From: Thermoplasmata archaeon
Lineage (GTDB): Archaea; Thermoplasmatota; Thermoplasmata; RBG-16-68-12; JAFNFQ01
DNA length: 64,000 bases
Direction: 5' to 3'
NCBI GenBank assembly: GCA_041489255.1
Contig: JBGPQV010000008.1
Coordinates: 1 to 64,000 of the forward strand
Part shown: piece after piece, positions 11,301-41,753 of the stretch
Layout of the letters: every line of letters starts with the position of its first letter
Numbering within the stretch: position 1 is the stretch's first letter
Translations under genes and position numbers: made by a program
Notes under the pieces: model-generated
Database searches by the model: none
The model's input: only the letters and a program-made list of their open reading frames with translations
What the model was told of the DNA's origin: nothing

Positions 11301-14300
11301 CCCACGCAGTTCCGGGGGAATGACTTCGGTTGTATCGCCGGTGAAGTGATCGGAATCCATCGAGGAAACGGCCCATCCCTGAGGGGGAACATTGTCTTCA
11401 ACCATTTCAAGATGGTCATTGTAGGACGGGTCATAGGTGTATGACGTCTCGTGATATCCCGAATCATCATATAGCGAATAGGATTCCTTGACATTCCCGA
11501 ATGCATCGTTCTCCTTCCTGCTTGTGACTATCCAAGAACTCGGACCTTTGACTTTTGTTTCAAGCGCCAGTCCTCCAGGTCCATAGCTAAAGCGCGTCTC
11601 CTGAGCCGTGGTATCATCCTGAGCCACGCGCAGCCCAGACGGTCGATCTTTGATCATTGGCGAAATGTCGCTGTTTGGATAGAAGGCATTCTCTGTGGGA
11701 GTGTACTCGAAGATATCACCGCCAAAGATGTTGTCGAAATAGGGTGATTCGTAGAGAATGCGACCGTCATACTCAATACGGAATTTAGCAGTGAAAGGAA
11801 AAGCATTCGGGCAAATATAGCCTTTGCAGAGGTAGCGGTTGTAGTAGTAGGCATCAATCCATGCGGTACCGGATTCATCAGCCCACCCCCACCACGAATT
11901 GCCCTTTTTGTCCAACATCGATACTACAGCGCCGTAAGGAATCGCTCCGGACGGATTACTCTTGACCTCGATTATGCCTGGCCTTTGCGCAATAGCCGAA
12001 TAGTCCCATCTCGCGCTTCCGCCAACTAGATAATAATGAACCCCAGCCCAGCAGCTGCTTGTCAAGAAGTCCAGGTCTCCTTGCTTGGCGACGAGCATGA
12101 TCCATCGATTAAAGATTGGAGGGATGTAACCCATCCACACCTCCTGGGCAAAGGTCCCGTTATACTCTCTTGCATCATCTAGGGGGGAGCCCCAAAAGAC
12201 ACCGTGTTTCCATTGGTTTTCGCCACCTGAACCATCTTGGTATTGCATCTTGATTTCTGAGGGAAAAGCGTCTTCGAAAAGATAGACGTATTGAACGTTG
12301 AAATCATCAGGCTGCGGGCATGGTTGTTGAGATGGCGCCGCATCTTTGAATCCATGCCAATTCTGTCCTGGCCAGCTGGGACTCTGGTGAAATTTCTGTC
12401 CACTTACCTGATTGTCAAAACCCCATTCCCAAGAGTAAGCATGATTTGTTTCCGGCGTGGAAGTACTGGGGAAGCTGTCGTCCACCCATCCGGTCTGAGA
12501 ATTCATGAATCCCGATGTCACCTTCTTGAAAGGTGAGATGAATGTTGGTTCGACGAAGTCGTATACACTTCCGCCCCAGAACTCGCGCGACGGGCTTGAA
12601 TAGATGACCGACCACTCTCGGTCAAGTATTTGAATCGTCAGCCTTGGAAAATAATATGGGTTGAGGGTAGCGGTTGCGCTGCCGGACACAAATGCGACGT
12701 GGGCCAGCATTTCCCCGCCTACGGCATCGAATACTCTTAGAAATGCCTCCGTCTCCGCGTCAGCGCCGCCGACCTTGAGCTCAGTCCATTTGAAGACGGC
12801 AACTTCGTTTATCCACATCGTTGCGGGTTGACCTGACAGGCTAAATAAAATATCGCAGATGCCGCCAACATTGCGAAGTTGCCGGCCTTCAGCGATTCTG
12901 TCAGTGTCTATGTACAAATCGTAGCTGCTGAGGCTATACTCAATCACCACAGAAACTTTGTACCATCGCCCTCCGAGATAAGTCCTGTCTGATCTTGCGT
13001 CCACAAGTCCGTTGGAATAATAGATGAAGCCGTCGTCACCAAAGGTGATTACGATTCGATCTCTGTCCCCAGACCGGATGCTTATCGAGTGTGAGGCGCC
13101 GCTTGATTCTCCCATGAGTACCAATGCAGTTATGACATGTCTGCTGTATTGCGTGTGGAAGTTATGATAAACTCCATTGGTGTCCCCACTGACCTCGCTA
13201 TCGATCTTGAGCGCCGGAGGCAGAATACCGAAAGTAGACTCGTCAACCACAGCATTCGCGTTGGGCTCTTTGAGCCAGTCTGAAACATCACGGTCGCGGA
13301 AATCCTCCCACCATATTCTACCGATCGTCGTTGCTGAAAGCCTCCCAGGTCCGTAAAAAGCATTCTGTTTGTCGGAGTTCACATAGCTTGAGAAGGTCTC
13401 GTTCCCCATCGAGTCTCTCGCATAAATGACGTTGCCGTATTCGTCATAATTCGTGTAGGTCGAATAGGTCACATCATTGCCGTCAGATGCTGCAGGTCCC
13501 ATGAACGCATCCTGTTGCGTCGATCGCCCAGATTCGTACCAATATCGTTGCTGGTTGAGTTTGCCGCCGGAGGCATCGACCTGCGTTTCGGTATAGCTGT
13601 TGGTGATGATATCCATGTTGTAAAGAGTGTAGCCATTGACGGAGCTGTCTCCCGTATAATACGTCACTCTGTCGTAAACCATGAAGTCATTCACGAATGA
13701 GCAATCGTAAGTCTTCTTCCTCACCGTGATGTAGCTTTCGCCTCCTAGAGGTCTCATTCTCAGTTTCTGAGTGATTACCACATATCTCGTGAGTTCAGTT
13801 CCTGCCTTTACGATTCCATAGAGGTATTCCGAGCGTGCGCCGCTGGGGTAGGTGACGTCGGAGATGAGTCTGTCCTCGGGTCCCGTGTAGCCATAGGTTG
13901 TCCATCGTCCGGCCGGATCTTTCACCCCCGTTAACTTGTCGCCATCATACCGGTAGAACACCTCCTTGGAACTCGCTCCTTGGCCGCCGTATGTGATTTT
14001 GCATACTTTCCGAATCCCTAGACAGTCCGGCAGAATGGGATCATAGGAGAAAATCGCCGTGCGAGATATCGTATCAGTGATTTCCAGCAACCTTCCGGTC
14101 GAGTCATAAGTGAAAAAGATATGGTTGGCCCCGGTCGTGTCATCTATCAGTGTCAACCTCCAAGCGTATATCGCGGAGCTGGATGCAGCATATTCGAATT
14201 GATAAAGAGTCCCGGATTTTGTGGTAAGACGAACGTATTTTCCGCTGGAAGTTACAAATCTTTCCATATGGAAGTATTCGCCATCCTTATTGTCGTAAAC

Positions 14301-22657: not shown

Positions 22658-23395
22658 TCAGTGGTCATCTCTCGGGTCTCCTCGCTTCTGTCCGTGGTTC
22701 TCCGGCTTCGCCCGGTCAGCCGCGCGGATCCGCGGCACACGCTCTCCTGTCACCATGTAAACGACGCGTTCCCCGATGTTCACCGCGTGGTCAGCGATTC
22801 GCTCCAAGTATCGGACCACCAAGATGTAGCGTGCGCCAATCTCGGTCTCCAGCGACCCGTCCTTCATGTCCGCGACGATATTGCGGAAGGCCTCGTCGTG
22901 CATTAGGTCGATCGTGTCGTCGACCTCGGCAAGATTCCGAACCGATTCCGCATCGCGCCGCACGAACGCGTCGACAGCCTTGTCGACCATCTCAATCGTC
23001 TGATCTACCATCTTCGGCAGGCCTGGCAGCTTGTCGAATTCGCTCGTCGTCGTCCCTTGGAGCTCGAGCGCGGTCTCCGCGATGTCCTTCGCATATCGAC
23101 CTATTCGGTCTAAGTCGGTCGTGATCTTCAGCGACGTGGTGATGGTCCGGAGGTCTCCCGCCACGGGCGCGTGCAGCGCGATCAGATCCCCGCACGTCCT
23201 TTCGACCTCGATTTGAAGCGCGTAGATCTCCTGGTCTAGCAGGAACACTTCATCCGCCGCGGCGTGGTCTAGCCTCGCCAGGCTGTCGACCGCCTTGCGG
23301 ATCGCAAGCTCGCTCAACTCGGCGAGCGTGACCATGTTCTCGTTCAGCTTATGGAGCCCGGCTCTGAGAGCCTTCCTTTCCGCCGCTGTAGGCAT
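22658..23395 (-). CDS. phoU: phosphate signalling protein PhoU
   Basis: PVAGDLR, DLDRIGRYA and LERIADHAVNI motifs; located in the pst operon. Confidence 0.93.
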   Translation of the reverse strand: MPTAAERKALRAGLHKLNENMVTLAELSELAIRKAVDSLARLDHAAADEVFLLDQEIYALQIEVERTCGDLIALHAPVAGDLRTITTSLKITTDLDRIGRYAKDIAETALELQGTTTSEFDKLPGLPKMVDQTIEMVDKAVDAFVRRDAESVRNLAEVDDTIDLMHDEAFRNIVADMKDGSLETEIGARYILVVRYLERIADHAVNIGERVVYMVTGERVPRIRAADRAKPENHGQKRGDPRDDH

Positions 23396-24148
23396 CTAAC
23401 CAAACCTCCCTGTTATGTAGTTCTCGGTGAGATCCTCTTTCGGTTTCTCGAAAAGATCCCGGGTACGGTTGAACTCTATCAGGCGACCCATGTACATAAA
23501 CGCCGTGGAGTCCGCCACACGCGCCGCCTGCTGCATGTTGTGGGTGACTATGACCAAGGTGTAGGCCTCCTTGAGGTCGAACATCAGGTCCTCGATCTTC
23601 GCCGTCGCCACGGGGTCCAGCGCGGAGCAAGGCTCGTCCATCAGAAGCACCTCGGGCTGGACCGCCAGCGCCCTGGCTATGCACAGTCTCTGCTGCTGTC
23701 CGCCGGAGAGGCCGAGCCCTGGAGCGTTCAGGGAGTCCTTCACCTCGTCCCAAAGGGCCGCCAGCTTCAGGCTCCTGACGACTCTGTTGTTGATGGTCTT
23801 CCTGTCGCGCGTCCCGTTGAGCCTCAGGCCGGAAGCGACGTTGTCGTAGATGGACATCGTGGGGAACGGGTTGGCCTTCTGGAACACCATTCCCACCTTC
23901 CTCCTCAGGGTCACGGGGTCCTGCCCGTAGACGTCCTCGCCGTCGAGAAGGACGGTCCCTTCAACTCTGGTCTTCGGAACTATCTCGTGCATCCTGTTGA
24001 GACACCTGATCAGGGTGGACTTGCCACATCCCGACGGGCCGATGATGGCGGTTATCGCATTCTCCTCGAAGTCGAGAGTCAGGTCATCCACAGCCTTCTT
24101 GCGGCCATACCACGCGGAAAGATTCTTCACCTGGATTTTCGCTGTCAA
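23396..24148 (-). CDS. pstB: phosphate ABC transporter ATPase
   Basis: [48 protein letters not shown] start at 24148 overlaps the pstA stop. Confidence 0.96.
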
Positions 24149-25056
24149 TGACGCACCCCCGATGATCCAAACCGATTCCTCAGAGCGAGGCGCGATGCCA
24201 CGCTGATCGCCAGCATCATCATCACGAGCACCAGTGAGGCGCCCCAGGCGAGCTGCTGCCAGTTCTGGTACGCGCTGGTTCCGTAGACATAGATGAGATG
24301 TGGCAGCGCTTCCACGGGCTGGTTGAGACCCTGGAAGCCGAAAGGGCTCCCGAACGCGGTCATGATCAGGGGCGCTGTCTCGCCACCGGCCCTCGCGACG
24401 GAGAGGAGCGAGCCGGTGATCAACCCGCTCCTGGCGGTGCTGAGGACCACGCGCAGCACGACGCGGTACTTCGGGATCCCGAGGGCGAGAGCGGCCTCCC
24501 GTATCGAGGTAGGGACCATCCTCAGTGCATCCTCTGTCGTCCGGGCGACGATGGGGATCATTATCACCGCCAGGGCGAAGGTGCCGGACAGCGTGCTGAA
24601 TACGGAACGCCGATCCATCAGTCCAGAGACAGCGAGCGCCAGCATCAGGGAGTAGACGAACACTCCGACGACGATCGAGGGGATCTCCGTCATGATCTCG
24701 GTGAAGAACCTCACGGCCCTGCCGAAGCGGTTGTTGCCGAACTCGGAAACATAGATCCCCGTCAGCGCACCTATCGGGATCGAGATCAAGGCCGCGATGC
24801 CCACAAGTATCAGCGTCCCCTGGATTGCGTTGGCGATGCCCCCGGTCGGGCAGGCGTTGCTGAATTGCGAGCTGCACGGCTCCGGCGGCGGCTGGGTGAA
24901 GAAGCCCGTGCTGAACGCTCCCAGACCTCGCGAGGCCGCTTCGAACAGGATGCTCCCCAGTGGGACGAGGGCGATGACCACGCAAGCGAATGCGGCAATG
25001 CTGACCAGCGCGCTCTTCCATCTCCTCCTCGTTGGACGGTCGAACCGGATCCTCAT
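24145..25056 (-). CDS. pstA: phosphate ABC transporter permease PstA
   Basis: [15 protein letters not shown] and [10 protein letters not shown] motifs; ATG at 25056. Confidence 0.94.
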
Positions 25057-26030
25057 TCGACCGCCTCCCCGATCCGCCACAGCCTCCCGATTACAAGCCT
25101 CGCGAAGATGTTGATCAGGAGGGATATGAGCATCAGCACGAGACCCAGGTAGATGAGGGCGCTCAGCTCCAGTTGTCCGGCTTCCGTGAAGTTGTTCGCG
25201 ATCAAGCTCGCGATCGTCTGTCCTTGGCTGAAAAGCGATGAGCCGATGGCGTTCCTGTTGCCGATCGTCATGGTCACCGCCATTGTCTCGCCGACGGCGC
25301 GCCCGAGACCGAGGATGATGGCACCGAATATCCCGGAGCGGGCGTACTTGAGCACGGCGACCCTGGTCGTCTCCCAGCGCGTGGCGCCGAGGCTCATGGC
25401 CGCCTCCCTCTGGTTCTGCGGCACCGCCATCAGCGCCTCGCGGGAGATGGCCGAGACCGTGGGAATGATCATCACCGCAAGTATGACTCCGGCGGTCAGC
25501 ATGTCGACCCCGATGGGGGTCCCCTGGAATATCGGCAGGAAACCCAGCACCGACTTGAGTCCGGGCTCCACGCTGTCTCTCATGAACGGGACCAGGACGA
25601 AAATCCCCCAGAGTCCGTAGACAACCGACGGGACCGCCGCCAGAAGCTCCACGAGGAAGGACAGCGGCGACCTCAACCAGCTGGGCGCCAGTTCGGAAAG
25701 GAAGATTGCAATACCGAGGCTGATCGGGACCCCGATCAGGAGCGCGATCGCGGATGTGACGAGCGTCCCGGTGATGAACGGGGCCGCGCCGAAACTGCCC
25801 GCCACCGGATCCCAGACCGTCCCCCATAAGAAGCCCGGTCCGAACTTCCCGATTGCCTCCTGGGACGACCAGGCCAGGACGACCACGATGAGGCCGATCA
25901 GAACCAGGACGCCCAGGGCGACGAGGGCTGCCGCTGCCTTGAATATGGAGTCACCCCGGGTTTCCCCCTTTACTCTCTTGTCTTTTCCCGGGGCGTTATC
26001 ATCGCGACTCTCGCCTGCGACGGTCCGCAA
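25053..26030 (-). CDS. pstC: phosphate ABC transporter permease PstC
   Basis: [38 protein letters not shown]. Confidence 0.95.
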
Positions 26031-26040
26031 GGACTAATCA

Positions 26041-27177
26041 TCACCTAAGCGCTTGCCCGTTGTACGTTATGAGCCCTATCGACCTCTCGTCAATCTGCAC
26101 CACCTGCTGCGGCAACGGGACGTAGTACAGGGCGGACGAATACTGCTGTCCGTCGTGAACGATCCACCACAGGAAGTCCACCAGCGCCTTTGCCCTCTGT
26201 TGATTCATAGAGGATCCATAGACGTTGAGTTCTCTGTAGACGACGATGTAGGTGAAGCTGCCAATCGGGTAGCTCTGATCGCCCGATGGATTGACTATGG
26301 AGACGCTCGACCAGCTGTCCTCGCCATTGGGCAGGGTCGTCGCTGCGCTCTCGGCCGCATTGCGCGTCGTGTTCAAGGTCGGCAGGATGAAGTCACCCGC
26401 CGAGTTTTCGACTTTGGCGTACTTGAGCCCGTTCGACGCTGCGTAGGCCAGTTCGACATACCCGACCGAGTAAGGGATCTGTGACACCGAGGCCGACACG
26501 CCGTCGTTCCCTTTCGCACCGATCCCGACCGGCCAGTTCACTGACTTGCCCTTGCCAACCTGTGACGCCCAGGCAGTGCTGACCTTGGACAGGTAGTCGG
26601 TCCAGACGAACGTCGTCCCGCTTCCATCCGACCTGTGCACGACCGAGATGGGCTGGTCGGGCAATGTGATGCCGGGATTCAGCGAGGTTATGTTGGCCGC
26701 GTTCCACTTGGTGACCGTGCCCAGGAACATGTCTGCGATGACCGGCCCGGTGATGTTCAGTCCGCTGCCCACTCCCGGGATGTTATAGGTGAGGACCACC
26801 GCGCCCATAGTCTCCGGAATGTGCAGTAGGTTTGGCGCGTTGGATCTCTCCGTCGCGTTCATAGGCGCGTCCGTCCCGCCAAAGTCGACGGTCTTCGCGG
26901 TGATTTGCTGTATGCCGCCGCCGCTGCCGATGGACTGGTAGTTCACTTGGACGCCGGTCAGTTTCTGGTATTCGCTCGACCACTTGCTTATCAACGGATA
27001 CGGGAACGTCGCTCCCGCCCCGAGGAGCGTCGTCGTCGCCGATGACGAGAACCAGCCCGCCATGGCGCCGTACGCCACGATGATGACGACGACACCCACT
27101 GCTCCGATCGCAATCAATTTCCCCCGCCCGCGACGTGGGGGCGGTATGCTTTCTGTCTCTTGCTCTGTGCCACTCAA
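26041..27177 (-). CDS. pstS: phosphate ABC transporter substrate-binding protein
   Basis: GAGATFPYP, YQSIGSGGG and HRSDGSGTT motifs; N-terminal TM anchor. Confidence 0.96.
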   Translation of the reverse strand: MSGTEQETESIPPPRRGRGKLIAIGAVGVVVIIVAYGAMAGWFSSSATTTLLGAGATFPYPLISKWSSEYQKLTGVQVNYQSIGSGGGIQQITAKTVDFGGTDAPMNATERSNAPNLLHIPETMGAVVLTYNIPGVGSGLNITGPVIADMFLGTVTKWNAANITSLNPGITLPDQPISVVHRSDGSGTTFVWTDYLSKVSTAWASQVGKGKSVNWPVGIGAKGNDGVSASVSQIPYSVGYVELAYAASNGLKYAKVENSAGDFILPTLNTTRNAAESAATTLPNGEDSWSSVSIVNPSGDQSYPIGSFTYIVVYRELNVYGSSMNQQRAKALVDFLWWIVHDGQQYSSALYYVPLPQQVVQIDERSIGLITYNGQALR

Positions 27178-27407
27178 GTTCTCACATCCTCATTTCAAAG
27201 CGATGATTCACTTGGAAGCCAACTCGTCGGCCACGAATGGGCCGATCTCCCCCCGCAACATCTTCCATTCATCGGGGCCGATCGTCGGCCGCACGCTCTT
27301 TCCCCTGTTTCTTGCCTTCTGTTGTTGTCTCATCGATTGCTTTCAAGGCAGGAGGAGTCCAAGTGCGTTGTCACAAGACAATCGGCTGACAACCGTGGAC
27401 AAACGGC

Positions 27408-27429
27408 GTCTATATTGACCTATATAGAC
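27408..27429. promoter_or_regulatory. inverted repeat GTCTATAT-N6-ATATAGAC, candidate operator between pstS and the PhoU-type regulator
   Basis: Perfect 8-bp arms at 27408-27415 and 27422-27429 in the divergent intergenic region. Confidence 0.55.
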
Positions 27430-27469
27430 TTCGCGGAGAACCCTTATCACAGGCCGATGTCTAGAGGGA

Positions 27470-28495
27470 TTGGTGCCCCAAGAAGTTCGCAAGCTGCAGA
27501 AGACCGGCGGGTCGACCTTCATCTTGTCGCTCCCGAAGCGTTGGGTCGTCGCCGCCGGACTGAAAGCCGGGGACAACGTCTTCGTTGATTCGCTCGACGA
27601 CGGGAGCCTGTCGCTCAGGACGGAACCCACGACGACACGCAAGGTCCGGAGGAAGGTCGTCGAGGTGAAGGGCGAGGAGCCTAGGGAGCACATCCTCCGG
27701 AAGCTCATAGGCGCATACATCTCCGGCCACGACGTCGTAGAGGTCCGTTTCAGGCCCGAGTCCCGCTCATCGATCAGGCGGGTCGCGAGGGAGTTCGCGC
27801 GCATGGCCATGGGTGTCGAAATAACCGAGGAAGGGCGCTCTTCCATCGTCCTCCAGGACCTCTCGGACCTCTCGGAGCTGAGTCCCGAGAAATGCCTTCG
27901 CAGGATGCACATGAGCGTCAAGGCGATGCACGAGGAGGCGCTCGGGGTCATGGGCACCGGCGACCGGGAGCACGCTGAAGACGTGAGGCAGATGGACGAG
28001 GACATCGATCGGCTTTACTGGCTGGTCGCGAAGCAGTGCAACCTCGCCAACCTCTACGGCGGCGCCACCGTGGACAACCTGACAAAGGCGGGGATCCACG
28101 ACTACCATTTTGCCGCGAAGACGCTGGAGCGCATCGGCGACCACGCTGAGAGAATCGCAGGCGCGGCCGAGCAGGTCGGCGGGAAGATAGACCCGCGCCT
28201 GACAAAGGACCTATTGGCGGCAGGCATGGCGTCGTTGCGAATCCTGGACTCAGCTTTCGCCGCGCTCATGTCCGGGGACATAGACACCGCGAACAAAGCC
28301 GCGGACGAGGGCGAGAAGCTCCAGAAGATGGTGGATTCTCTGACCCACCGCGTTGCGGTGTACAAAGGCGAAGAACTGCTCGCGCTGAGCGCCATCGTCG
28401 ACAGCATCAGCAGGACAGGAGGGTATGCCACGGATATCGCGGAAATCGCGATCAACCACCTCCTTTCGCAACCTAGCCTTGCGATAAATGAGTGA
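27470..28495 (+). CDS. archaeal phosphate uptake regulator (AbrB DNA-binding domain + PhoU domains)
   Basis: N-terminal RKLQKTGGSTFILSLPKRW; LERIGDHA; divergent from the pst operon. Confidence 0.92.
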   Translation: MVPQEVRKLQKTGGSTFILSLPKRWVVAAGLKAGDNVFVDSLDDGSLSLRTEPTTTRKVRRKVVEVKGEEPREHILRKLIGAYISGHDVVEVRFRPESRSSIRRVAREFARMAMGVEITEEGRSSIVLQDLSDLSELSPEKCLRRMHMSVKAMHEEALGVMGTGDREHAEDVRQMDEDIDRLYWLVAKQCNLANLYGGATVDNLTKAGIHDYHFAAKTLERIGDHAERIAGAAEQVGGKIDPRLTKDLLAAGMASLRILDSAFAALMSGDIDTANKAADEGEKLQKMVDSLTHRVAVYKGEELLALSAIVDSISRTGGYATDIAEIAINHLLSQPSLAINE

Positions 28496-28576
28496 CATTC
28501 CCTACTCCGTCCGTCAACGTATCTAGAACTCCCACATCGGCACGGCTACCGTCCCAAGCCCGGAATGTCGACCTCG

Positions 28577-30106
28577 CTACATGTAGTAGAGATACCGTGA
28601 CTCCGGAGGGATTCCCGCCGGGACCTCGCGCAGTATGTTGCCTACTTGACGCGCGAACTGCAGGGTTATCGGCAGAAGACAAGCGAAGTCGGCCGTGTTC
28701 CAGTTTGATCGAGTCAGTGCTAGGATTTCCCTGCACAACTCATCCCTGGGTGTGTCGGCTTGTTCAAACCGAACTTCCAGAGGCCTTGGAACCCTGGCGC
28801 CGGGATAGATCCTCATGTACGGGACGAAGCCCCTAGTGAAGAGCAAACGCGAATCGTCAGGTAGAGTAACAACCGTGCCTCGAATTGGTGGATGATATCC
28901 CGCGCGGAAGAGCTTGATGCCGCGTGCTCTCTCATAGATCGATACAAAATCCTTTCTAGCCACGCCCGCGAGTCCCGCGTTCATGCCGCTAATCTCTGCG
29001 TCCGTGAACTTCGAGGACTTATGGACGACCACCCGCGAGGGCCCATGCTGGGTATGTTCTTCGTAGGCCCTGAGCACTTGTCCCATTAGACGTCGGGCGG
29101 CATCCAAGGACAAGTGTGGCTCACGCTTCGGCTCCCACTTGAATCGTTCACCACGCAGGACAAGACCCTCCCCCTCGGGAGTGAACACCTGCGCAAGGCT
29201 TGTTCCTACATGCCCACCGACCTTTTCGTGATAGAAAGCAATCCCGACAAAACAGGTTCCTGCGGGGATGTCCTGAAGCCTCCAAGGTCGGCCTCCCGCC
29301 TTGTAGTGAAGCGCGACCGCGAGATTCCAGCAAATCGTAGCCGGATCCTGTAGTCTACCTTCCACCTTGCCAAACAGCTTGTCAAGAGTATACGGCCTGA
29401 TGAATTGGGTGGGGGCGCCCATGCGCATGGCGCGGGCCTTGAGCAAGTTGTGGAAGTTGTCACTCACCATCTTCTGAAGCATCTCGTCCCGGATCTCCTC
29501 TACTTCCGGGCTGAACTCCCAAAGTCTCCGCTGCCTGGGGTCCTCGGCAGACGTTTCGACGCGCTTTTCGCTCTCCGACTTTCTCCCCCTTGGGCCACCC
29601 TTCTCCTCGCCCTCAATCGGGATGCAGAGGTCCATCATCCTTCTAGGCGGTGCGCAGACGAAGAGTCGGGGACTCCCCTCCTTTGCTTTCTGTTTTTGGA
29701 TATGCTCACACATCAGGTCCACAGCGAACCTGATCCGCTCTTGGCGTCTGGGAATCCTCTCGAATCTTGCCATCTCATCATTCGTGAGAACCTCACACCA
29801 GTCCGGGGTCGTGACCAGCTCGCAACCGAAGGGGCTTCCCAGATTCATACCGGGGAAACCAGACTTCCACGAGGGATACGCTGGATCACCGGAGATACTG
29901 TTGCGACACAGTTCCAGGAGCTTCCATGCCTGGTCCACTGTTTCGGAATCTCCGACAATGCCGAGCGTGATTTGCTTCGGGTGTTCGGAGTACGGCCCGT
30001 AGAGGGCCAGACCTGTCTTCGGGTCCGGGCAAGGGAAACCGCCTCCGAAGAGAAGTTCTGGTTCCGGATAATGTGTCGCTGAAAGCGCGCTACCCTTCCT
30101 CTCCAT
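28577..30106 (-). CDS. short prokaryotic Argonaute (MID-PIWI, catalytically inactive)
   Basis: PEPELLFG N-terminus; WNLAVALHYKAGGRPW, CFVGIAFY, AQVF, VVVHKSS, EILALTRSNWN, LPIT and RYLYYM C-terminus. Catalytic Asp positions are replaced. Probable ATG at 30106 overlaps the upstream stop; the ORF extends to 30160. Confidence 0.93.
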   Translation of the reverse strand: MERKGSALSATHYPEPELLFGGGFPCPDPKTGLALYGPYSEHPKQITLGIVGDSETVDQAWKLLELCRNSISGDPAYPSWKSGFPGMNLGSPFGCELVTTPDWCEVLTNDEMARFERIPRRQERIRFAVDLMCEHIQKQKAKEGSPRLFVCAPPRRMMDLCIPIEGEEKGGPRGRKSESEKRVETSAEDPRQRRLWEFSPEVEEIRDEMLQKMVSDNFHNLLKARAMRMGAPTQFIRPYTLDKLFGKVEGRLQDPATICWNLAVALHYKAGGRPWRLQDIPAGTCFVGIAFYHEKVGGHVGTSLAQVFTPEGEGLVLRGERFKWEPKREPHLSLDAARRLMGQVLRAYEEHTQHGPSRVVVHKSSKFTDAEISGMNAGLAGVARKDFVSIYERARGIKLFRAGYHPPIRGTVVTLPDDSRLLFTRGFVPYMRIYPGARVPRPLEVRFEQADTPRDELCREILALTRSNWNTADFACLLPITLQFARQVGNILREVPAGIPPESRYLYYM

Positions 30107-31481
30107 CGCCCTCATCCTCGCGGAAATCGGATTCACTTTCGGCCTCTGCCTTTTCATCAAGGACGAGGTCCGGCGGCTCGACCACCTGCCTCAACATCGT
30201 TTGGTCCCCGAAGATCCCAACGGGTACTGAAACGGAGGCCGGCTGTGAGTCAATCTCCAGCACCTCACCCCCCGTCTCGAGAGCGATGCACCCTTTCTCA
30301 GTGGAAAGAAGCCAAGCCCAGAAACGAATCTCGCTAAAATTCGGGCTATTCTTCTGCGTCGAGGTGAACTTCGCGTTCAGAACGATAGACTTTCGCCCCC
30401 GGATGAACTCGTTCATGGCAGTCTTGAAAACCCAGCCTGATTCCAACAACAGGAACGGTTGGCGGCCCAAGAGCAGGAACCTCATCTTTACCGCGCGGAA
30501 CGCCTTATACCCATATGGCGGGCTTCCCCTCGTATAGTCGAAAAGGAGTCCTTTGGGCTTTCCTTTTCCGTACGGGAGGAGGCTTGTCTCCTTCAGAACG
30601 CCTTCATGAAAGAAGTACTTCCGCCCGACCCTGTCATGGCTCATGTGCATCCGCGCGGACCGAACTCGAATACAATCGTTCAGCAGCCAGACTAGCCTGC
30701 GGGAGCGCTCGCCGTCCGCAAGCCAGCTGTCTGTCGACTCTTCATGAGTGTCGAACTGCTCCACCACTCCTAGGAAGGGGTGATCACGCTTCCCAAGGTC
30801 CGCGAAAGTGTACAGCCTCCCCTGCCAGATGACATGCGGAGGCACGATCTCACCCTGGTAGTATTCGATGAGGTCCTTCAACCGGCGAAACTCGGTCGGG
30901 GCACTCCATATGACGGGGGGGAGACTTGCCACTGGGAAGAGGTTAGAATGAATGGTCTCTGGCACCTTGTCTGCCGCAGCAGCAGAGAGGTCGTGCATCA
31001 TGGATCCGCCGTCGTCGGGCACACCGTGCCCATCCACCGCTTTCGCATCTCCACGGGGGAGCGGTTCGTTCTTCAAAATCGCGAGCAGCTGGGGAAGTCC
31101 GCGCTTCAAATTCCCTTCGGAGAAGTCCACATACTTTCGAAACGCCAACAGTGGCGGGAGTGCGCATCTCCTGTACATGAGAGGGACGACGAAACCCAGC
31201 CTACCCGCGGGATCCTTGAAGACAGCCGCGTTTCTCTCGGCAGTTGGCCATTCGGCGAGTAGGTACTCCGGGGACAGGACGAGCCCGATGAATCTTGAAG
31301 TGGAGAGGGCTTGGTCAATCCGAGCCACGATGTCATCGCCGGGCTTGATGTCCCACTCGTCGATAAAGACCTTGAGCTTCCTTCCTCGACCGCTCTCGCT
31401 TTCGACTGCGGCGGCGAGCTTGAGGGCGAACTCCTTATCAATCGACTTGTAGGAGATGAACAAGTCGTGATCTTTGGCCAT
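30090..31481 (-). CDS. TIR-APAZ protein (SPARTA NADase effector)
   Basis: N-terminal TIR (DLFISY, VFIDEWDIKPGD, LSPEY...WPTAE with the catalytic Glu), APAZ-like region from ETIHSNLFPV, and an acidic C-terminal tail. It overlaps the short pAgo gene and has an AGGTGA SD. Confidence 0.9.
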   Translation of the reverse strand: MAKDHDLFISYKSIDKEFALKLAAAVESESGRGRKLKVFIDEWDIKPGDDIVARIDQALSTSRFIGLVLSPEYLLAEWPTAERNAAVFKDPAGRLGFVVPLMYRRCALPPLLAFRKYVDFSEGNLKRGLPQLLAILKNEPLPRGDAKAVDGHGVPDDGGSMMHDLSAAAADKVPETIHSNLFPVASLPPVIWSAPTEFRRLKDLIEYYQGEIVPPHVIWQGRLYTFADLGKRDHPFLGVVEQFDTHEESTDSWLADGERSRRLVWLLNDCIRVRSARMHMSHDRVGRKYFFHEGVLKETSLLPYGKGKPKGLLFDYTRGSPPYGYKAFRAVKMRFLLLGRQPFLLLESGWVFKTAMNEFIRGRKSIVLNAKFTSTQKNSPNFSEIRFWAWLLSTEKGCIALETGGEVLEIDSQPASVSVPVGIFGDQTMLRQVVEPPDLVLDEKAEAESESDFREDEGDGEEG

Positions 31482-31583
31482 CTGTCTTCACCTATGCCCG
31501 TTGGACACAGGAATACAAGTGCGACACACCACTGCGATGCGGCAAGGCAATCGCATTCCTGCGAGCGACAATTCCGCGGTGCC

Positions 31584-31591
31584 TATTTAAA
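31584..31591 (-). promoter_or_regulatory. putative TATA box for TIR-APAZ/pAgo operon
   Basis: TTTAAATA on the minus strand, about 100 nt upstream of the TIR-APAZ start. Confidence 0.4.
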
Positions 31592-31639
31592 GCGCGGGGG
31601 AGAGGGGTGAAACCGTTCGCTAGGTCTTGGGCTGGAGGT

Positions 31640-31906
31640 GCTGCCGGGGTCGGGTCAATGGCAGGCGTCTTCTCCACGGGGTCCACTAATCATAGTGGAC
31701 GGTCGCCTGACTGTCATGGGTGAGAGCCGGAGGCGGTGTACTTGGCGGAAGTGGTCCACCACCTTGCGGAGGGAGAGGCCACGGAAGTAGAGGTCCAGGG
31801 CGAGGGCGATTTTCTCCGGGTCCGCCCGGCGCTTCTGGAACCCATCGGTGCCCGTGAACCGGCTTGTTTGGGCCATCGTGGTGCTCGCGTTGGCTCTCGG
31901 TGGCAA
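31640..31906 (-). mobile_element. IS6-family transposase remnant (internally deleted)
   Basis: FTGTDGFQKRR...IALALDLYFRGLSLRKVVDHFRQVH...SPMTV resembles the archaeal IS6 N-terminal HTH. It is followed directly by HYD*/KTPA C-terminal-like scraps; the DDE core is absent. Confidence 0.7.
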
Positions 31907-31941
31907 GGATGTATTGCAGGCAGTCCTCTGAGAGTCCGCAG

Positions 31942-34900
31942 TTATGCCTTGAGGGCGATAACTGTCTCCTTGCGCTCAAATTGCCGACTGGCCTCTTCGA
32001 CCTTGGAGATTTCGGCGTCGCTCAAACCGTAGAGGCGATAGACGAGCTTGTCAAGTTCGGCTTCTGAGCCTTCGATCTGCCTTTCCACAACCCGCTTCTC
32101 GTGATCCGTTCGCTTGGTCCTGGCTTGATCGCCAAGTCGGAACAATTGTTCTGCCGTCCGCTCAATCTCTTGGACGATTTTGGCCTCAGCGGCCCCTTCT
32201 GGCAACTTGACCGGGAGTTGCTCGAGGTATTGCCTCCAGAAGCGGACGTAGCCGCCTCGAAGGGAAGTTCCAATCGCCCGCAGATATTCGAAAAGAAGTG
32301 TGGAATTGAGAAGAGCCGTGAGGAAGAGGGCCGATACCCTCTGGTCTTTGATGAGCAGTCCATAGCCTGTCTTGTAGAAGTGCCCGAGCAGGTCCGCGGT
32401 AAACGACCCAACGTTGTTGTAGTCGGGGACGATGATCTTTTCGAGCTGGAAAAGAGTCATGCTTTTCGGGTAGCCGAAGGCATACCAGTTAGCGCCCTTG
32501 AACTTGCCTCGCTCACGGTCGCCAAGCTGCTTCCGATTCTCTTGAAGATAGGCCCAGGTGAGCGGAAACTTCTTGCCAAGTTCTACAGCCGTGTAGAGTC
32601 GAAACGAATCGAACCCGATTTCGTAGGGACAAATCAGTCTCGAAGTAGAGACGAGTGGCGCAAACCTCCGAATCTCCTTTCCTCGCAGGAAGGGCTTCGT
32701 GAGTTCCAGTTCCACTTCGACTTCCTTCTGAAGTGCGTGCGAGAAGCCGACTACGCGCGGGCCCTTGGTTTTCGCGTCGTCCAACACGAAAACCTCATCA
32801 GCGCTTGTTTGGGTGCCCACAAAGACCTGCGCGACGTCCACCAGCTTCGGCAATATGCGACTGAGACGCTCAACAACCTCCGAAATCCCACCGGCGGAGA
32901 AAGTCCAGTCCGATTCGTTGATTCGGGAAGCAGGTATGACGGATTGCGCCGACGCGCCGTTGGTTCGCCAAGCAGCCAAATCCCTTACTTGGTGGAATCG
33001 CACCGATTCCGAGGCGGACTTCCTGAGCATGAGCAAGCAGGTGTAGGTTGTGGCGCCTCGGAACACTTGAAGGTCCCCGAAATGGACAACCTCTTCGAGG
33101 TACTTGTTTTTCGAAATCAGCGATCTGAGCGGTTCGCCGTATTGGGCCGTAAAGAACTTGTGTGGGAGAATGTAGCCCAAGCGCCCAGTGACCTTCAGGA
33201 GTTGAAGGCCCCGCTCGACGAAAACCACGTAGATGTCGTAATTGCCCTTCGATGCGGTTTCAAAGTGGCGTTTGTAAAGCTCCACTTCAAGCGGAGCCCA
33301 TTCCGTCATTGTTTGAACCCGGATGTAAGGCGGGTTGCCAATCACCACGTCGAACCCGCCTTCAGCGAAAACCTGCGCGAATTCCGTCTTCCAATCGAAC
33401 GGATTGACCCGCCGGGCTTGCTCTTCGTCAAGAATCAATTGCTGAAGATGTTTGTTCTCGATTAGCGAATTCCCGCATTTGATGTTGTCATCGAGGTCGG
33501 GAAGCGCCCGCTGATGGAAGAGTTTCTGATTCTTTTCGATGGTTTCTCCCGACACCTGCTCCAGCACTCTCAGCAGGAGCGACAGTTTCGTTACTTCAAC
33601 GGCTTGAGGGTCGATGTCGCTCCCGAAGATATTGTTCAGTAGGATTCGTTTCCGCTCGCCCGATGTGAGGAACCACGATCCGCCGGGTCCTTGAACGATT
33701 TCATTCTTGAACTTCTTCGGGCCATTCTCGACATACCAGTTCAGGTGCCAGTCCAAGAGGAACTGATAGGCGACCAAGAGGAACGAACCCGATCCACAAG
33801 CAGGGTCCAAAACGCGAAGTCTGGAAACCTCTTTTGGGGTCTTGCCTTCAACAGCCTTTCCGGCCGTGTTGTTCACGATGTACCGAACAACGTAGGTTGG
33901 AGTGTAGTAGACCCCACCCGCTTTCTTTACTTCTGGCTTTTCCTCGACGATGGCTCGATGGCCGGCTGTAAGCCGAATTACTTTGCCAAGGAATTGCTCG
34001 TAGACGTGCCCGAGGATTTCAGCCGGAAGAACAGAGAACTCGTATGGACTTTCGGGATAGTAGAGCCGCCGTACGATATCCTTCAGGACTTTATCATCGA
34101 TTACGAGTTTCGGGGTGAGTTCGTCGGGCGTGCCGTACCGATCCTTTTCGCGCGAGAAATAGAAGAGGCCGGAGTTGTATCTTTCATCCGCGAGCCGAAA
34201 GAATTCTTTGAGACGGTCATACGCCTGCTCGCTCTTCATCAACGTCTGGAGACGACCGTAGGTTTCGATGCCGCGATCTTCGCAAATTCGGAGGAATACG
34301 ATTCGGTCGATTGTCGCCTGGACGGCATAGTTCAGCTCATACTGCGAGAGACTCGGATTCCGCAGCGCGATGTTTCGCGCGAGTTCGTCTCGCCAAGTCT
34401 CGATGTCTTCAAGGAAGGCCTGGTCAACTTCGACGGTTCCCTTTACGTCCTTCCAGGTCTCGGCGTATTGGTCGAACGATCCATTGAGTACGGCTTGTCG
34501 GGAGAAGGTGGCGTTGAAGACCTCCCAATTCGAGACAAGCTGGTCAAGGGAGAAATATCGTCGAAGCGCGGCGGCAGCGGAATCACCCTCCTTTGGACGG
34601 ATTCGCGTATCATAGATTGCCGTCTCTTCGAAGTTGGTTAGGATGCAAAGAGGCAGTTTCGCGTTCCAGCCATATCTCCGCAGTTGGACGGCGGGTGCCG
34701 GGTCGTCTTTGATTCTCACCGAAGGCTTCTTGGTTTCAAGGAAGAGCTTGCGCGTTTGTCCGATGCGCAGCGAATAGTCGGGGGCCTTCGTTGAGCCTCC
34801 AATTCTCAGCGTATCCTCGTGGATAACTTCCTTGTAAGCTGGTGCTGCTCCTTGCTTGTTTGAAACGTCCCACCCGAGGATCTCCAGCAAGGGATCAATG

Positions 34901-35013
34901 AACTCTTGGCGAAGTTGTGCCTCTTTGTAGGCAGGCGACTGGTAGGCGTCGCGGTTCCGCTTGTAGCGCTTTACGAGCTCGATGAGTTCTATTGGCGCGG
35001 AAGTCTTTTCCAA
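31942..35013 (-). CDS. type IIG-like (Eco57I-like) fused restriction endonuclease / N6-adenine methyltransferase
   Basis: PD-(D/E)xK nuclease (KAPDY...FLETKK), GVYYTP, motif I LDPACGSG, motif IV GNPPY, and a TaqI-C-like TRD. Probable TTG start at 35013; the ORF is open to 35154. Confidence 0.9.
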   Translation of the reverse strand: MEKTSAPIELIELVKRYKRNRDAYQSPAYKEAQLRQEFIDPLLEILGWDVSNKQGAAPAYKEVIHEDTLRIGGSTKAPDYSLRIGQTRKLFLETKKPSVRIKDDPAPAVQLRRYGWNAKLPLCILTNFEETAIYDTRIRPKEGDSAAAALRRYFSLDQLVSNWEVFNATFSRQAVLNGSFDQYAETWKDVKGTVEVDQAFLEDIETWRDELARNIALRNPSLSQYELNYAVQATIDRIVFLRICEDRGIETYGRLQTLMKSEQAYDRLKEFFRLADERYNSGLFYFSREKDRYGTPDELTPKLVIDDKVLKDIVRRLYYPESPYEFSVLPAEILGHVYEQFLGKVIRLTAGHRAIVEEKPEVKKAGGVYYTPTYVVRYIVNNTAGKAVEGKTPKEVSRLRVLDPACGSGSFLLVAYQFLLDWHLNWYVENGPKKFKNEIVQGPGGSWFLTSGERKRILLNNIFGSDIDPQAVEVTKLSLLLRVLEQVSGETIEKNQKLFHQRALPDLDDNIKCGNSLIENKHLQQLILDEEQARRVNPFDWKTEFAQVFAEGGFDVVIGNPPYIRVQTMTEWAPLEVELYKRHFETASKGNYDIYVVFVERGLQLLKVTGRLGYILPHKFFTAQYGEPLRSLISKNKYLEEVVHFGDLQVFRGATTYTCLLMLRKSASESVRFHQVRDLAAWRTNGASAQSVIPASRINESDWTFSAGGISEVVERLSRILPKLVDVAQVFVGTQTSADEVFVLDDAKTKGPRVVGFSHALQKEVEVELELTKPFLRGKEIRRFAPLVSTSRLICPYEIGFDSFRLYTAVELGKKFPLTWAYLQENRKQLGDRERGKFKGANWYAFGYPKSMTLFQLEKIIVPDYNNVGSFTADLLGHFYKTGYGLLIKDQRVSALFLTALLNSTLLFEYLRAIGTSLRGGYVRFWRQYLEQLPVKLPEGAAEAKIVQEIERTAEQLFRLGDQARTKRTDHEKRVVERQIEGSEAELDKLVYRLYGLSDAEISKVEEASRQFERKETVIALKA

Positions 35014-35113
35014 GGCCGGTCTACCTTTGAACGCAAGGTGGAGTCTCCATAAGAACCTTCGGCTGTGAACGGGTTCGATGTCCCCGGCTGGCCCCCGGCA
35101 GGGGTCGCTTTGG

Positions 35114-35236
35114 GTACAGGAACAGGGTCTTGGCCGACGCAGGCGGCCCCTCAAGCAGCATGTGGACCGGCTTCTCGGCTGTCAGGGCGGACCTGAACAG
35201 ATCCTTGATGTCGTCGAAACCTATGATGGGTTCGAA
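35114..35236 (-). pseudogene. AAA+ ATPase N-terminal fragment
   Basis: Minus frame reads FEPIIGFDDIKDLFRSALTAEKPVHMLLEGPPASAKTLFL (Walker A variant). It has no start codon and similarity stops after Walker A. Confidence 0.6.
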
Positions 35237-38395: not shown

Positions 38396-38544
38396 GCTCG
38401 GTGCGAATTTTCGCCATGAAGACGGAGGCCCAATCGGATTTCCTACGTCTGGTCGATACTCTTAAACAGAAGCTTCGCTCATACCGCTTTTGGCGCCGAA
38501 ACCTTTAATTCAACAGGCGACCGAAAGGCTTATCCTAGTTACAG

Positions 38545-38617
38545 TGGGCTCGTCCGGATTCGAACCGGAGACCTTCACTATGTCAAAGTGACGTCATGAC
38601 CGCTAGACTACGAGCCC
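38545..38617 (-). tRNA. tRNA-Val(GAC)
   Basis: Full cloverleaf: GGGCTCG acceptor, anticodon arm TCACT-TTGACAT-AGTGA, T arm TCCGG-TTCGAAT-CCGGA. CCA is not encoded. Confidence 0.96.
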
Positions 38618-39900: not shown

Positions 39901-40560
39901 ATGACCGCCAAGACCCCGAAGCGCGCCATGGTCAGGATCTACTCCGACGGCGGCGCAAGGGGCAATCCCGGGCCCGCCGCGATAGGGGTCGTGATCTGCG
40001 ATCATGACGACGTCATCATCAAGCCTTTCGGCGAGTACATCGGTCGAGCGACGAACAATGAAGCTGAGTACAGGGCCCTCATAAGGGGACTCGAGATCGC
40101 TGCGAAATACACGGATAGCGAGATCATCTGCACGCTGGACAGCGAACTGGTCGTACGCCAGATGATCGGGGAATACAGGGCGAAAGAGCCGAGGATGCGG
40201 AGGCTCATGGAGGAGGCGAGTCGCACGGCGCGGCAATTCAGGCATGTCAAGTTCGTCAACCTCCCCAGAATGACCGGCCATCTCGCTTTAGCCGACAGAC
40301 TCGTCAACGAGACTCTGGATGGAGCGCACTGCGCCTCCATAGACGAGATGCTGCGGGCGAGCATCACCAAGGAGGTTGAAATCGATTCGATGCATGATTC
40401 GGGAGTGGAGCAAGTTGATCCGTCCACCATCAGCTTGATGTTCATCGAACATTGCCTGCGGCAAGGTTGGATAGTCAAGAAGGGAAGCGGGCGTGGCAGC
40501 AAGTACCACGTCACCGAGACCGGGAAGAAGGAGCTTAGGAAGTTTGGAATATCGATCTGA
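39901..40560 (+). CDS. rnhA: ribonuclease HI with C-terminal winged-helix-like extension
   Basis: YSDGGARGNPGPAAIG, TNNEAEY, DSELVVRQ and ADRLVN motifs, plus about 75 extra C-terminal residues. Confidence 0.88.
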   Translation: MTAKTPKRAMVRIYSDGGARGNPGPAAIGVVICDHDDVIIKPFGEYIGRATNNEAEYRALIRGLEIAAKYTDSEIICTLDSELVVRQMIGEYRAKEPRMRRLMEEASRTARQFRHVKFVNLPRMTGHLALADRLVNETLDGAHCASIDEMLRASITKEVEIDSMHDSGVEQVDPSTISLMFIEHCLRQGWIVKKGSGRGSKYHVTETGKKELRKFGISI

Positions 40561-40571
40561 AAAGAAGTGAG

Positions 40572-40646
40572 TGCTCCCGCCGGGATTTGGACCCGGGTCC
40601 GAGGCTCGAAAGGCCTCTATCCTTGACCGGACTAGACTACGGGAGC
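40572..40646 (-). tRNA. tRNA-Glu(TTC)
   Basis: GCTCCCG acceptor, anticodon arm GAGGC-CTTTCGA-GCCTC, T arm CCGGG-TCCAAAT-CCCGG. Confidence 0.94.
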
Positions 40647-40970
40647 GTTGACCCGCCAGTTAAAGGGGGCAGTCATAAAGCCTTTGCCACTTGCGCCCGG
40701 CTTCTTCGCACACGGGCTTGACAGGATAAATCGGCAGGTTGGCGTCTCACAGCGACGCCTCGTGGAACATCCCCCGTTCGGGACTGCAGGATGCCTAGCT
40801 CTAAATACCGACTCGCCGGTCCTCCTTCTCGGAGACATTGGGAGACGAGAGGATGTCATGGGGATCTGGAAGCTGTGACGTACCGGTGTCGTTGAGAGCC
40901 CTATGTCGCTCCAAACGCGGCGCTTCGTTCGGGTGTCCGGGCAGCGAAGGGGGACAGAGGAGGGACTAGA

Positions 40971-41753
40971 TTGGTTTCTCGGTCAACGAATCCATCCGGG
41001 CCTTGGAGCCTTCCGCCGCCTCACCCCAGTTACCTGCCTGAGGTCTTCCCGAGGGAGCACATATCGAGGGACGAGGTCCTCGTCTTTGAAACGAGGCCAA
41101 ATCTCGTTCCTTTCATCATCCAACCCATAATCGGGCTGATCGTGCTGGTTCTGCTGTTTTTCCCCTTTCTCATCTTGGCAGGCTATTATATGGACATGGC
41201 TTGCCTTCTTTTCGCGATACTCTTCTTCGTCGTCATCCCGGTGCTGCAGATCTTCCTGAGCTACATGGACTGGATGGGGCGGAGATACGCGCTGACATCG
41301 GACAAGATAATGGCCGTGTCCGGGATCATATCGCGGCACCTCTACCAATGCACCTACGACAAGGTGCAGAACATCACCCTCCACCAGGGTGTTTTAGGGA
41401 GGATCATCGGCTACGGGACCATCGCCTTCTGGACTGCGGGATATGGCGGCGGAACGACCGGGATGGGCTACGAGCATCAGGTCATTGGCGGCGGCGGTGT
41501 CGTCTGGCTCAGGGTCAACGACCCAGTGAATCTCAAGAAGTATGTCGAGGAGGTCGTCAATGCCTTCCAACGGGAGAGGAAGATGCAGGAATACAAGGCC
41601 ATGGCCGCCGTGCTGACAGAATCGCAGAAGGCGGGAGTGCCTGCGCCTGCCGCCGCGACCTCAGGTGCTGTCAAGTTCTGCCCGAGCTGCGGCAATAGGG
41701 CCAGTGCTGGCGCCTTGTTCTGCGAAAAGTGCGGGAAGAAATTCGGGACATAG
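40971..41753 (+). CDS. bacterial-PH (bPH_2) domain membrane protein with zinc ribbon
   Basis: Two TMs; RYALTSDKI...GIISR...KVQNI...QGVLGRIIGYGTI; C-terminal FCPSCG...FCEKCG. Confidence 0.82.
   Translation: MVSRSTNPSGPWSLPPPHPSYLPEVFPREHISRDEVLVFETRPNLVPFIIQPIIGLIVLVLLFFPFLILAGYYMDMACLLFAILFFVVIPVLQIFLSYMDWMGRRYALTSDKIMAVSGIISRHLYQCTYDKVQNITLHQGVLGRIIGYGTIAFWTAGYGGGTTGMGYEHQVIGGGGVVWLRVNDPVNLKKYVEEVVNAFQRERKMQEYKAMAAVLTESQKAGVPAPAAATSGAVKFCPSCGNRASAGALFCEKCGKKFGT

Follow-up and report, generated by a model that had tools for sequence, protein, structure and literature searches.

The stretch of DNA analysed here, called the window, comprises the first 64,000 nucleotides of contig JBGPQV010000008.1 (GenBank assembly GCA_041489255.1), from the chromosome of a Thermoplasmata archaeon. 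Between positions 28,577 and 31,591 its minus strand carries two overlapping genes, one for a protein with TIR and APAZ domains and the other for a short prokaryotic Argonaute (pAgo), preceded by two putative expression signals. The pair has the architecture of the bacterial immune systems known as SPARTA (short prokaryotic Argonaute, TIR-APAZ). From upstream to downstream with respect to the genes, the features are the following (pLDDT, predicted local distance difference test; D/E, aspartate or glutamate).

31584..31591, minus strand: candidate archaeal TATA box TTTAAATA, about 100 nt upstream of the TIR-APAZ start, putative function
31488..31493, minus strand: Shine-Dalgarno-like AGGTGA, read from the sequence, 6-nt spacer to the ATG at 31481, putative function
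30090..31481, minus strand: TIR-APAZ gene, 463 aa, ATG start, stop codon included (open reading frame, Pfam, AlphaFold2 with Foldseek, hhalign)
31062..31481, minus strand: TIR domain, residues 1-140, with W78 and the putative catalytic E82 (Pfam, alignment, profile alignment)
30204..30980, minus strand: APAZ domain, residues ~168-426 (pLDDT ~90, Foldseek, phmmer, predicted pAgo interface)
30093..30203, minus strand: disordered acidic C-terminal tail, residues 427-463 (pLDDT <50, D/E count)
28577..30106, minus strand: short pAgo gene, 509 aa, MID-PIWI only, stop codon included (open reading frame, PADLOC pAgo_I, PDB matches)
28625..29479, minus strand: PIWI domain, residues 228-512 of the 527-aa open reading frame (Pfam PF02171 Piwi, E 4.6e-9)

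Both open reading frames (30090..31481 and 28577..30160) are uninterrupted and co-oriented. The second one could encode 527 aa, and an in-frame ATG at 30106 gives a product of 509 aa that is identical to the database protein P0001 and whose start overlaps the last 17 nt of the TIR-APAZ gene. The co-oriented, overlapping pair described in a first-pass annotation of the sequence is thus borne out, and the TIR-APAZ protein is encoded directly upstream of the pAgo in the same operon, as in SPARTA systems. Full-length close homologues cover the pAgo over 98-100% and the APAZ region over 99-100%. Both upstream motifs that the annotation had pointed out, AGGTGA and TTTAAATA, are present, and their assignment as Shine-Dalgarno sequence and promoter is plausible from the sequence. 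TTTAAATA occurs once in the window, with a chance expectation of 0.23 copies, and at least one copy appears in 20 of 100 shuffles; taken on its own it is therefore weak evidence for a promoter and no better than a plausible candidate.

The short-pAgo model pAgo_I of PADLOC (455 aa) aligns end to end with the Argonaute (E 2.5e-141), and so do the solved short pAgos, which together with the length of 509 aa identifies a protein consisting of MID and PIWI domains only. The MID residues H219, K223, Q234 and K269 are retained, and this H-K-Q-K set is what we take to be the 5'-phosphate pocket motif of the domain. The DEDX tetrad is absent. Its positions were mapped through a BLASTP alignment to MapAgo, the pAgo of the Maribacter polysiphoniae SPARTA, and through the correspondence of SPARTA pAgo positions 284, 328, 362 and 484 with CbAgo D541, E577, D611 and D727, as given in the portion of the source available (PMC11156904); in the archaeal protein they are occupied by A290, P330, S364 and R486. 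The GIAF(Y) and HKSS motifs are present and fall at the first and third of these positions (A290 and S364). The PADLOC model, the Pfam match and the tetrad mapping agree on the MID-PIWI-only Argonaute of about 509 aa without DEDX that had been proposed from the letters.

In the partner protein, Pfam TIR_2 matches residues 8-129 (E 2.2e-22), and none of the nuclease effector families found on other APAZ proteins (DREN/DUF4365, HNH, Mrr-like) was matched in the Pfam and PADLOC scans. All 32 TIR-APAZ proteins in the alignment share, without exception, the W78 and E82 of the WxxxE motif, and these two residues also align with the W and E of the TcpB TIR (4lzp_B). A profile alignment to the Map TIR-APAZ (hhalign, probability 94%, E 1.2e-7, 370 columns) pairs E82 with E77, the residue whose replacement by alanine abolishes SPARTA activity according to the available parts of two reports (PMC9097488, PMC10899771). 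By this alignment E82 would be the equivalent of the Map/Crt catalytic E77, in line with the retained WxxxE glutamate of the original description. A different pairing, of window E77 with Map E77, was suggested by BLASTP and was rejected as a mis-pairing in a non-significant alignment (E 0.089).

An AlphaFold2 model of the TIR-APAZ protein, computed with a 32-sequence alignment as input (mean pLDDT 77.9), is divided into the TIR domain (residues 1-140), a disordered linker (143-167), the APAZ domain (168-426, pLDDT ~90) and the disordered tail (427-463). As a whole it matches the TIR-APAZ chains of the Crt, Bab and Map SPARTAs (Foldseek E 1e-21 to 1e-18, probability 1.0) over about 450 columns at 16-18% identity, and the C-terminal domain alone matches the APAZ domains of SPARHA and SPARDA, the HNH-APAZ and DREN/DUF4365-APAZ relatives of SPARTA (9om4_A, TM 0.75; 9qbp and 9qbq, E 1e-13 to 6e-12). 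The C-terminal region is therefore predicted to fold as APAZ; this had been a suggestion, together with the remark that a failure to fold in this way would speak against the whole reading. The acidic tail is also real: D and E make up 14 of its 37 residues and 12 of the last 23, the acidic end LDEKAEAESESDFREDEGDGEEG, and among the 32 relatives the median D/E share of the tail is 0.33. In the available part of Finocchio 2024 (PMC10899771), APAZ tails of S2 clades are 16-46 aa long with 21-45% D/E. Residues 427-463 thus have the acidic character expected of a SPARTA tail, and by analogy with the bacterial systems they may be auto-inhibitory.

A predicted complex of the two proteins, a modelling step that the first-pass annotation had proposed, reached a score of 0.87 (runs of 0.87, 0.81 and 0.88), against 0.03 for the best control; among solved complexes 58 of 80 attain the mark applied to this score, among mismatched pairs 2 of 110. 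Contact agreement among the runs was at least 67% and the pLDDT of the partner at least 76. The predicted interface joins APAZ residues 167-181 and 323-430 to pAgo residues 7-15, 201-209 and 395-439. Since SPARTA and SPARDA complexes have already been solved, part of the score may be due to likeness, and with this limit the model supports binding of the two proteins as a heterodimer.

The position of the system among short Argonautes was examined through its relatives and their partner genes. The pAgo has 610 matches among the 8000 candidates scored, the nearest being 61% identical. Partners were surveyed at 80 species-genome loci with a pAgo alignment and at 5 loci from the host's order; 7 loci without a usable upstream open reading frame were left out and 78 upstream frames were scanned. 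The partners comprise 29 proteins with TIR_2 (4 of them with an added helix-turn-helix, HTH), 23 with SMEK_N, 9 with Schlafen/AlbA_2, 6 with DUF4365 and 1 with DUF4062, together with 8 proteins without a family and 2 unrelated aminotransferases. The pAgo tree has 105 rows (IQ-TREE 'quick'; two short rows dropped; 18 of the 120 listed database proteins added by choice) and is rooted on a single outgroup, an S1A SIR2-APAZ-pAgo fusion. In this tree the window pAgo groups with the database protein P0002 (support 99) inside a 19-row clade (100) whose named members belong to Thermoplasmatota, Bathyarchaeia and Pacearchaeota, and this clade is nested in one of 55 rows (97). The latter contains 28 rows with a TIR or HTH-TIR partner, 6 with a partner without Pfam family, 3 without an upstream frame and 18 database proteins without context; no nuclease, SMEK or Schlafen partner was found among its 37 rows with genomic context. 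It is almost wholly TIR-linked, and its hosts are Planctomycetes, Acidobacteria, cyanobacteria and several archaeal phyla. Four Acidobacteriota loci of the same pAgo clade (L011, L012, L028 and L031) encode a TIR-APAZ with an extra N-terminal HTH_31 or HTH_3 domain.

Canonical SPARTA forms a separate clade (support 100) on a stem of 1.6-1.7 changes per site, which includes the loci L098 and L099 as well as the archaeal locus L004; at L098 the pAgo gives a full-length match of 1178 bits to the MapAgo chain 8fex_B. The systems with DUF4365 and SMEK partners make up a third clade of 36 rows (100). With one outgroup sequence, the order of the three clades is not settled either in the 105-row tree or in the 55-row subset. 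When the window APAZ or TIR was compared by phmmer with 86 partner proteins, the matches were members of its own clade and some Schlafen-APAZ and DUF4365-APAZ proteins, and no canonical TIR-APAZ was matched. An exhaustive search of cluster representatives with the APAZ domain gave 327 matches at E <=1e-3, 112 at E <=1e-10 and 10 at E <=1e-30; among the best 100 clusters 47 carry TIR_2, 9 Schlafen/AlbA_2, 4 DUF4365 and 3 SIR2_2, and of the 9 nearest all but one carry TIR_2, the exception being an N-terminally short fragment. The safe reading of these comparisons is that the operon represents a deep TIR-linked sublineage of the S2 short-pAgo systems, with the SPARTA architecture and distinct from all characterised SPARTAs. 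On the same sequence grounds it is a distant lineage and no close relative of the characterised Map, Crt and Bab systems.

A further effector type came to light in the survey. Nine loci (L014, L019, L026, L035, L041, L045, L053, L060 and L068) combine a short pAgo with a Schlafen/AlbA_2-APAZ protein, the two being fused in L026. Their hosts are Methanoperedens, Bathyarchaeota, Micrarchaeota, Nitrosotenuis, Nanoarchaeota and an uncultured archaeon (L035), and their pAgos branch basally in the rooted tree. In the portions of the literature available, no characterisation of this effector type was found.

Within the host's order, 60 other genomes were searched for the pAgo and 4 gave a match (E <=1e-3). 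Across the phylum a sample of 400 other genomes gave 5 (E <=1e-20), of which the best is 49% identical. One of these five (L120, G391:C49:8244-8747) is a pAgo fragment with six in-frame stops (2 TGA and 4 TAA), probably a decayed copy. A TIR partner is present at five other distinct archaeal loci (L003/L048, L004, L009, L010 and L069; L003 and L048 are one identical locus), and the first of these loci is carried by G034, a genome from the same order as the host. L004, on contig C22 of the genome G018, also from this order, is a SPARTA of canonical type: its TIR-APAZ gives a full-length match to the PADLOC model PDLC02421 (E 2e-62), and in the tree its pAgo falls together with MapAgo (support 100). 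With L004 canonical and the window system divergent, this archaeal order therefore has representatives of both TIR-Argonaute lineages.

In the literature, as far as the sources were available, the S2A clade is described as (Mrr-)TIR-APAZ systems of Acidobacteria, Bacteroidetes and Proteobacteria, from a set of 283 RefSeq pAgos (Koopal 2022, PMC9097488), and TIR-APAZ proteins are placed in APAZ group IIa (Ryazansky 2018, PMC6299218). The tested SPARTAs found in the same portions of the literature are all bacterial and form one tight clade (Map, Crt and Bab). A 2026 survey of 7747 archaeal genomes treats argonautes as a single class, and the words TIR and APAZ are absent from the accessible part of its text (PMC12988326); the corresponding part of an Asgard survey makes no mention of APAZ or SPARTA (PMC11291487). 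A 2026 study of the Guaymas Basin describes, in the portion available, bathyarchaeal components of Argonaute systems with an N-terminal TIR2 or AlbA, not named SPARTA (PMC13477220). No study of an archaeal SPARTA was found by phrase, title or abstract, a result that leaves room for reviews or supplements in which the lineage is already listed. The novelty attached to an archaeal SPARTA in the first-pass annotation thus stands only in part: the tested examples are indeed bacterial, but five other archaeal TIR loci are public and TIR2 partners have been described in Bathyarchaeia (PMC13477220). Its archaeal occurrence is not unique, since similar loci are already in public genomes.

Could the operon be bacterial DNA joined to an archaeal contig during assembly or binning? 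With a G+C content of 0.572 the operon lies slightly under the flanking core (0.598-0.608), no pAgo was found in G001, a genome of the same genus, and many of the system's relatives are bacterial. The locus was detected in five sediment-metagenome runs, each with at least 65% of its sampled words, and the bridging of contigs was examined in four of them, of which X2 is flagged as a possible source sample and X3, X4 and X5 are not. Mismatch-free contigs span the junction between the phoU gene and the pAgo gene (X2, 24941-28749; X3, 28251-29909), the junction between the pAgo and TIR-APAZ genes (X2, 28915-31663) and that between the TIR-APAZ gene and a restriction-modification gene on its other side (X3, 30094-32271; X4, 31436-33586). 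Contig depth in the four runs is even, at about 2-9, and without joints, and archaea (Thermoplasmatota, Bathyarchaeia and Pacearchaeota) supply the nearest of the named relatives. A chimera is unlikely because contigs of four runs bridge the junctions, and on this ground a chimeric assembly was ruled out; these contigs also support continuity across 28.5 kb, which the annotation had wished to see verified, and we give an assembly or binning artefact next to no credence. The neighbouring genes are clearly archaeal, as had been noted: they encode aIF2-alpha, PAC2, two archaeal type IV pilins, an XPD helicase, KaiC-like ATPases and AbrB-PhoU with a pst operon. In all four runs the depth jumps about ten-fold at 23268-23901 (65-83) and 40386-41000 (39-59), against the ~2-9 found elsewhere; these stretches correspond to the pstB ATPase and a tRNA-Glu region and are probably conserved sequence common to other organisms of the samples.

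The other alternatives accept the operon as it stands and concern what it does. Several observations weigh against a SPARTA in the strict sense. The TIR is of the WxxxE type, like those of TcpB and AbTIR, and its best sequence matches in the PDB are TcpB (4lzp), PdTIR (3h16) and AbTIR (8g83/7uwg), with E-values of 2e-8 to 3e-7; its product could therefore differ from plain ADP-ribose (ADPR). AbTIR-type TIRs make cyclic ADPR isomers, and one may imagine that the TIR here produces such a signalling nucleotide for a separate effector, as in Thoeris, instead of killing by depletion of NAD. This seems very unlikely to us, given that no candidate receptor or effector is conserved beside the operon, that the partner gene directly precedes the pAgo gene across related loci, and that the SIR2-like gene of the window lies about 26 kb away; in addition, the APAZ protein is the only one specifically associated with short pAgos in the available part of Koopal 2022 (PMC9097488). 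The remaining contrary points concern the scaffold. BLASTP against the Map TIR-APAZ is the non-significant comparison already mentioned, and the PADLOC TIR-APAZ models PDLC02403 and PDLC02421 match weakly (E 7.7e-12 at 37-260 and 1.8e-10 at 7-231) and leave the APAZ half uncovered, whereas the same profiles match the Map TIR-APAZ (3e-141) and the L004 partner (2e-62) over their full length. The window APAZ scores better with the PADLOC models for SIR2-APAZ (E 6e-23) and REase-APAZ (E 5e-19), and its sole phmmer match in the PDB is the SPARHA HNH-APAZ 9om4_A (E 1.3e-17, 25% identity). The pAgo is likewise nearer in sequence to the filament-forming SPARDA/SPARHA pAgos (9qbp_B, 9qbl_B, 9om4_B and 9jsb_A, E 2e-72 to 2e-61) than to those of SPARTA (E 7e-51 to 3e-44), and its activated oligomeric state may therefore differ from the SPARTA tetramer.

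From these similarities follows the alternative that the same parts are activated in the manner of SPARDA and SPARHA, with pAgo-driven, open-ended filaments that array the TIRs, in place of the closed 4:4:4:4 SPARTA tetramer. TIR effectors of other systems form filaments, according to the part of the source available (PMC12738770). The lower similarity to canonical SPARTA may, however, reflect rate and not relatedness, given the long stem of that clade, and an approximately unbiased (AU) test does not reject its union with the window clade (p 0.63), the joined tree being 4.2 log-likelihood units better. The filament route is held to be rather unlikely. An earlier formulation from the PDB and PADLOC E-values, that of a clean S2B scaffold with a swapped-in TIR, was softened in view of the open order of the three clades and of this p-value. 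A bolder reading, in which the operon belongs to a second, largely unrecognised TIR-Argonaute lineage, abundant in the bacterial and archaeal groups of the 55-row clade, that placed a TcpB/AbTIR-like WxxxE TIR, acquired independently of canonical SPARTA, on an S2B-like APAZ/pAgo scaffold and is activated by target-induced filaments and not by tetramers, is regarded as equally doubtful; if it were true, archaea would seem to have contributed to the origin of the S2 short Argonautes, as judged from the archaeal members of this lineage and the basal Schlafen/AlbA-APAZ systems of archaea. We consider it likely that this Thermoplasmata-group archaeon has in the operon a SPARTA-type system of abortive infection, located in a variable region of its chromosome. 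The intact SPARTA of the first-pass annotation is in this sense upheld as regards architecture, intactness and archaeal setting, and has to be qualified by the distance of the lineage from the characterised SPARTAs.

For such a SPARTA-type system a mechanism can be proposed, in which guide type, auto-inhibition by the tail, oligomeric state and NADase output are modelled on the characterised bacterial systems (PMC9097488, PMC10899771); tail auto-inhibition and the tetramer mechanism of SPARTA are described in the available part of Finocchio 2024 (PMC10899771). The APAZ domain of one protein would bind the PIWI/MID face of the other, the pAgo, to give a heterodimer. The catalytically dead pAgo would load short 5'-phosphorylated guides, probably RNA of the transcriptome, in its H-K-Q-K MID pocket, and in the resting state the acidic tail of the TIR-APAZ protein would occupy the nucleic-acid cleft. 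Pairing of the guide with single-stranded DNA of an invader, plasmid or virus, would displace the tail and lead to oligomerisation, by which the TIRs would be brought together into composite NADase sites using E82. Depletion of NAD(P)+ would then cause the infected cell to stop growing or to die.

The host genome measures 2.74 Mb in 41 contigs and is 96.5% complete, the window being on contig 8. Two further features delimit the surroundings of the operon.

31942..35154, minus strand: type IIG restriction-modification gene, full length, not part of the Argonaute system (PADLOC REase_MTase_IIG, E 4.3e-257)
38544..38617, minus strand: tRNA-Val, right edge of the variable region (ARAGORN and synteny break)

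The restriction-modification gene lies directly upstream of the operon and has Pfam matches to Eco57I, N6_Mtase, MmeI_Mtase and TaqI_C (Eco57I/MmeI-like). From position 38543 rightwards the window is 94% identical at the DNA level to the same-genus genome G001; for positions 1-38542 that genome has no collinear match, only short stretches at 66-88% identity, an absence that is no proof because G001 is about 94% complete and in 90 contigs. The break of synteny at the tRNA-Val therefore places the operon and the restriction-modification gene in a strain-variable region, whose left edge was not found within the window by the same comparison, and the sequence suggests a large variable region or island with its left edge beyond the window. 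G+C content is 0.557 between 28.5 and 38.5 kb and 0.598 to the right of it. Between the restriction-modification gene and the TIR-APAZ promoter region, an 83-aa open reading frame (31655-31906, minus strand) resembles by eye the N-terminal part of a transposase; no Pfam or PADLOC family matches it. The low-G+C left part of the window contains a SIR2-like protein at 971-2710 (plus strand; Pfam SIR2_2, PADLOC Aga_SIR2 class II, E 8.8e-20) and a 950-aa TPR protein at 3267-6119 (minus strand; PADLOC 'TPR' PDLC02907, E 8.2e-57), which by their sequence are further candidate defence genes. In the same part, a 2788-aa open reading frame with RHS repeats (8310-16676, minus strand) occupies a stretch of about 50% G+C, against 58-63% in the core, and the similarity of the adjacent frame (6549-7778) to a C-5 cytosine methylase is confined to the C-terminal part of the latter.

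The architecture of the operon is textbook, and similar archaeal loci are already public; for these reasons the finding extends a known type of system and does not define a new category. The TIR-Argonaute lineage to which it belongs is far more divergent than the tested one, and surveys may under-call or mislabel it because the standard TIR-APAZ profiles cover it only partly; the locus adds an example that is well assembled and clearly archaeal. The locus offers a test case for the SPARTA mechanism (tail auto-inhibition, tetramerisation and NAD depletion) across the TIR-associated radiation and in archaeal cells, and could supply new guide-programmable NADase reagents for the detection of nucleic acids.

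Among known systems, the WxxxE TIR NADases TcpB/BtpA, PdTIR and AbTIR share with the window protein the aligned W and E and are its best TIR matches in the PDB; they differ in being stand-alone or otherwise fused, without an APAZ or pAgo partner. SiAgo of Sulfolobus islandicus is likewise an archaeal short-pAgo system of abortive infection, and according to the available part of its description it is set apart by its partners, SiAga1 and SiAga2, which are not TIR-APAZ proteins (PMC11788926). SPARDA (DREN/DUF4365-APAZ) and SPARHA (HNH-APAZ), of the S2B clade, provide the closest solved pAgos and APAZ domain and have the same operon layout and an acidic tail; the window effector is a TIR and not a nuclease, and the DUF4365 and SMEK clade is separate in the tree. 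From the S2A SPARTAs of Maribacter polysiphoniae, Crenotalea thermophila and a Bacillales bacterium, the archaeal system differs in its host, in a pAgo that is only 26% identical to MapAgo and belongs to the separate 55-row clade, and in a TIR-APAZ whose likeness to that of Map is seen at the profile level only. With these same systems it shares a TIR-APAZ gene upstream of a MID-PIWI pAgo without DEDX, a glutamate at the equivalent position (E82/E77), the APAZ fold, the acidic C-terminal tail and a predicted heterodimer, and its linker at residues 143-167 matches the hinge given for BabSPARTA (143-164) in the portion of the description available.

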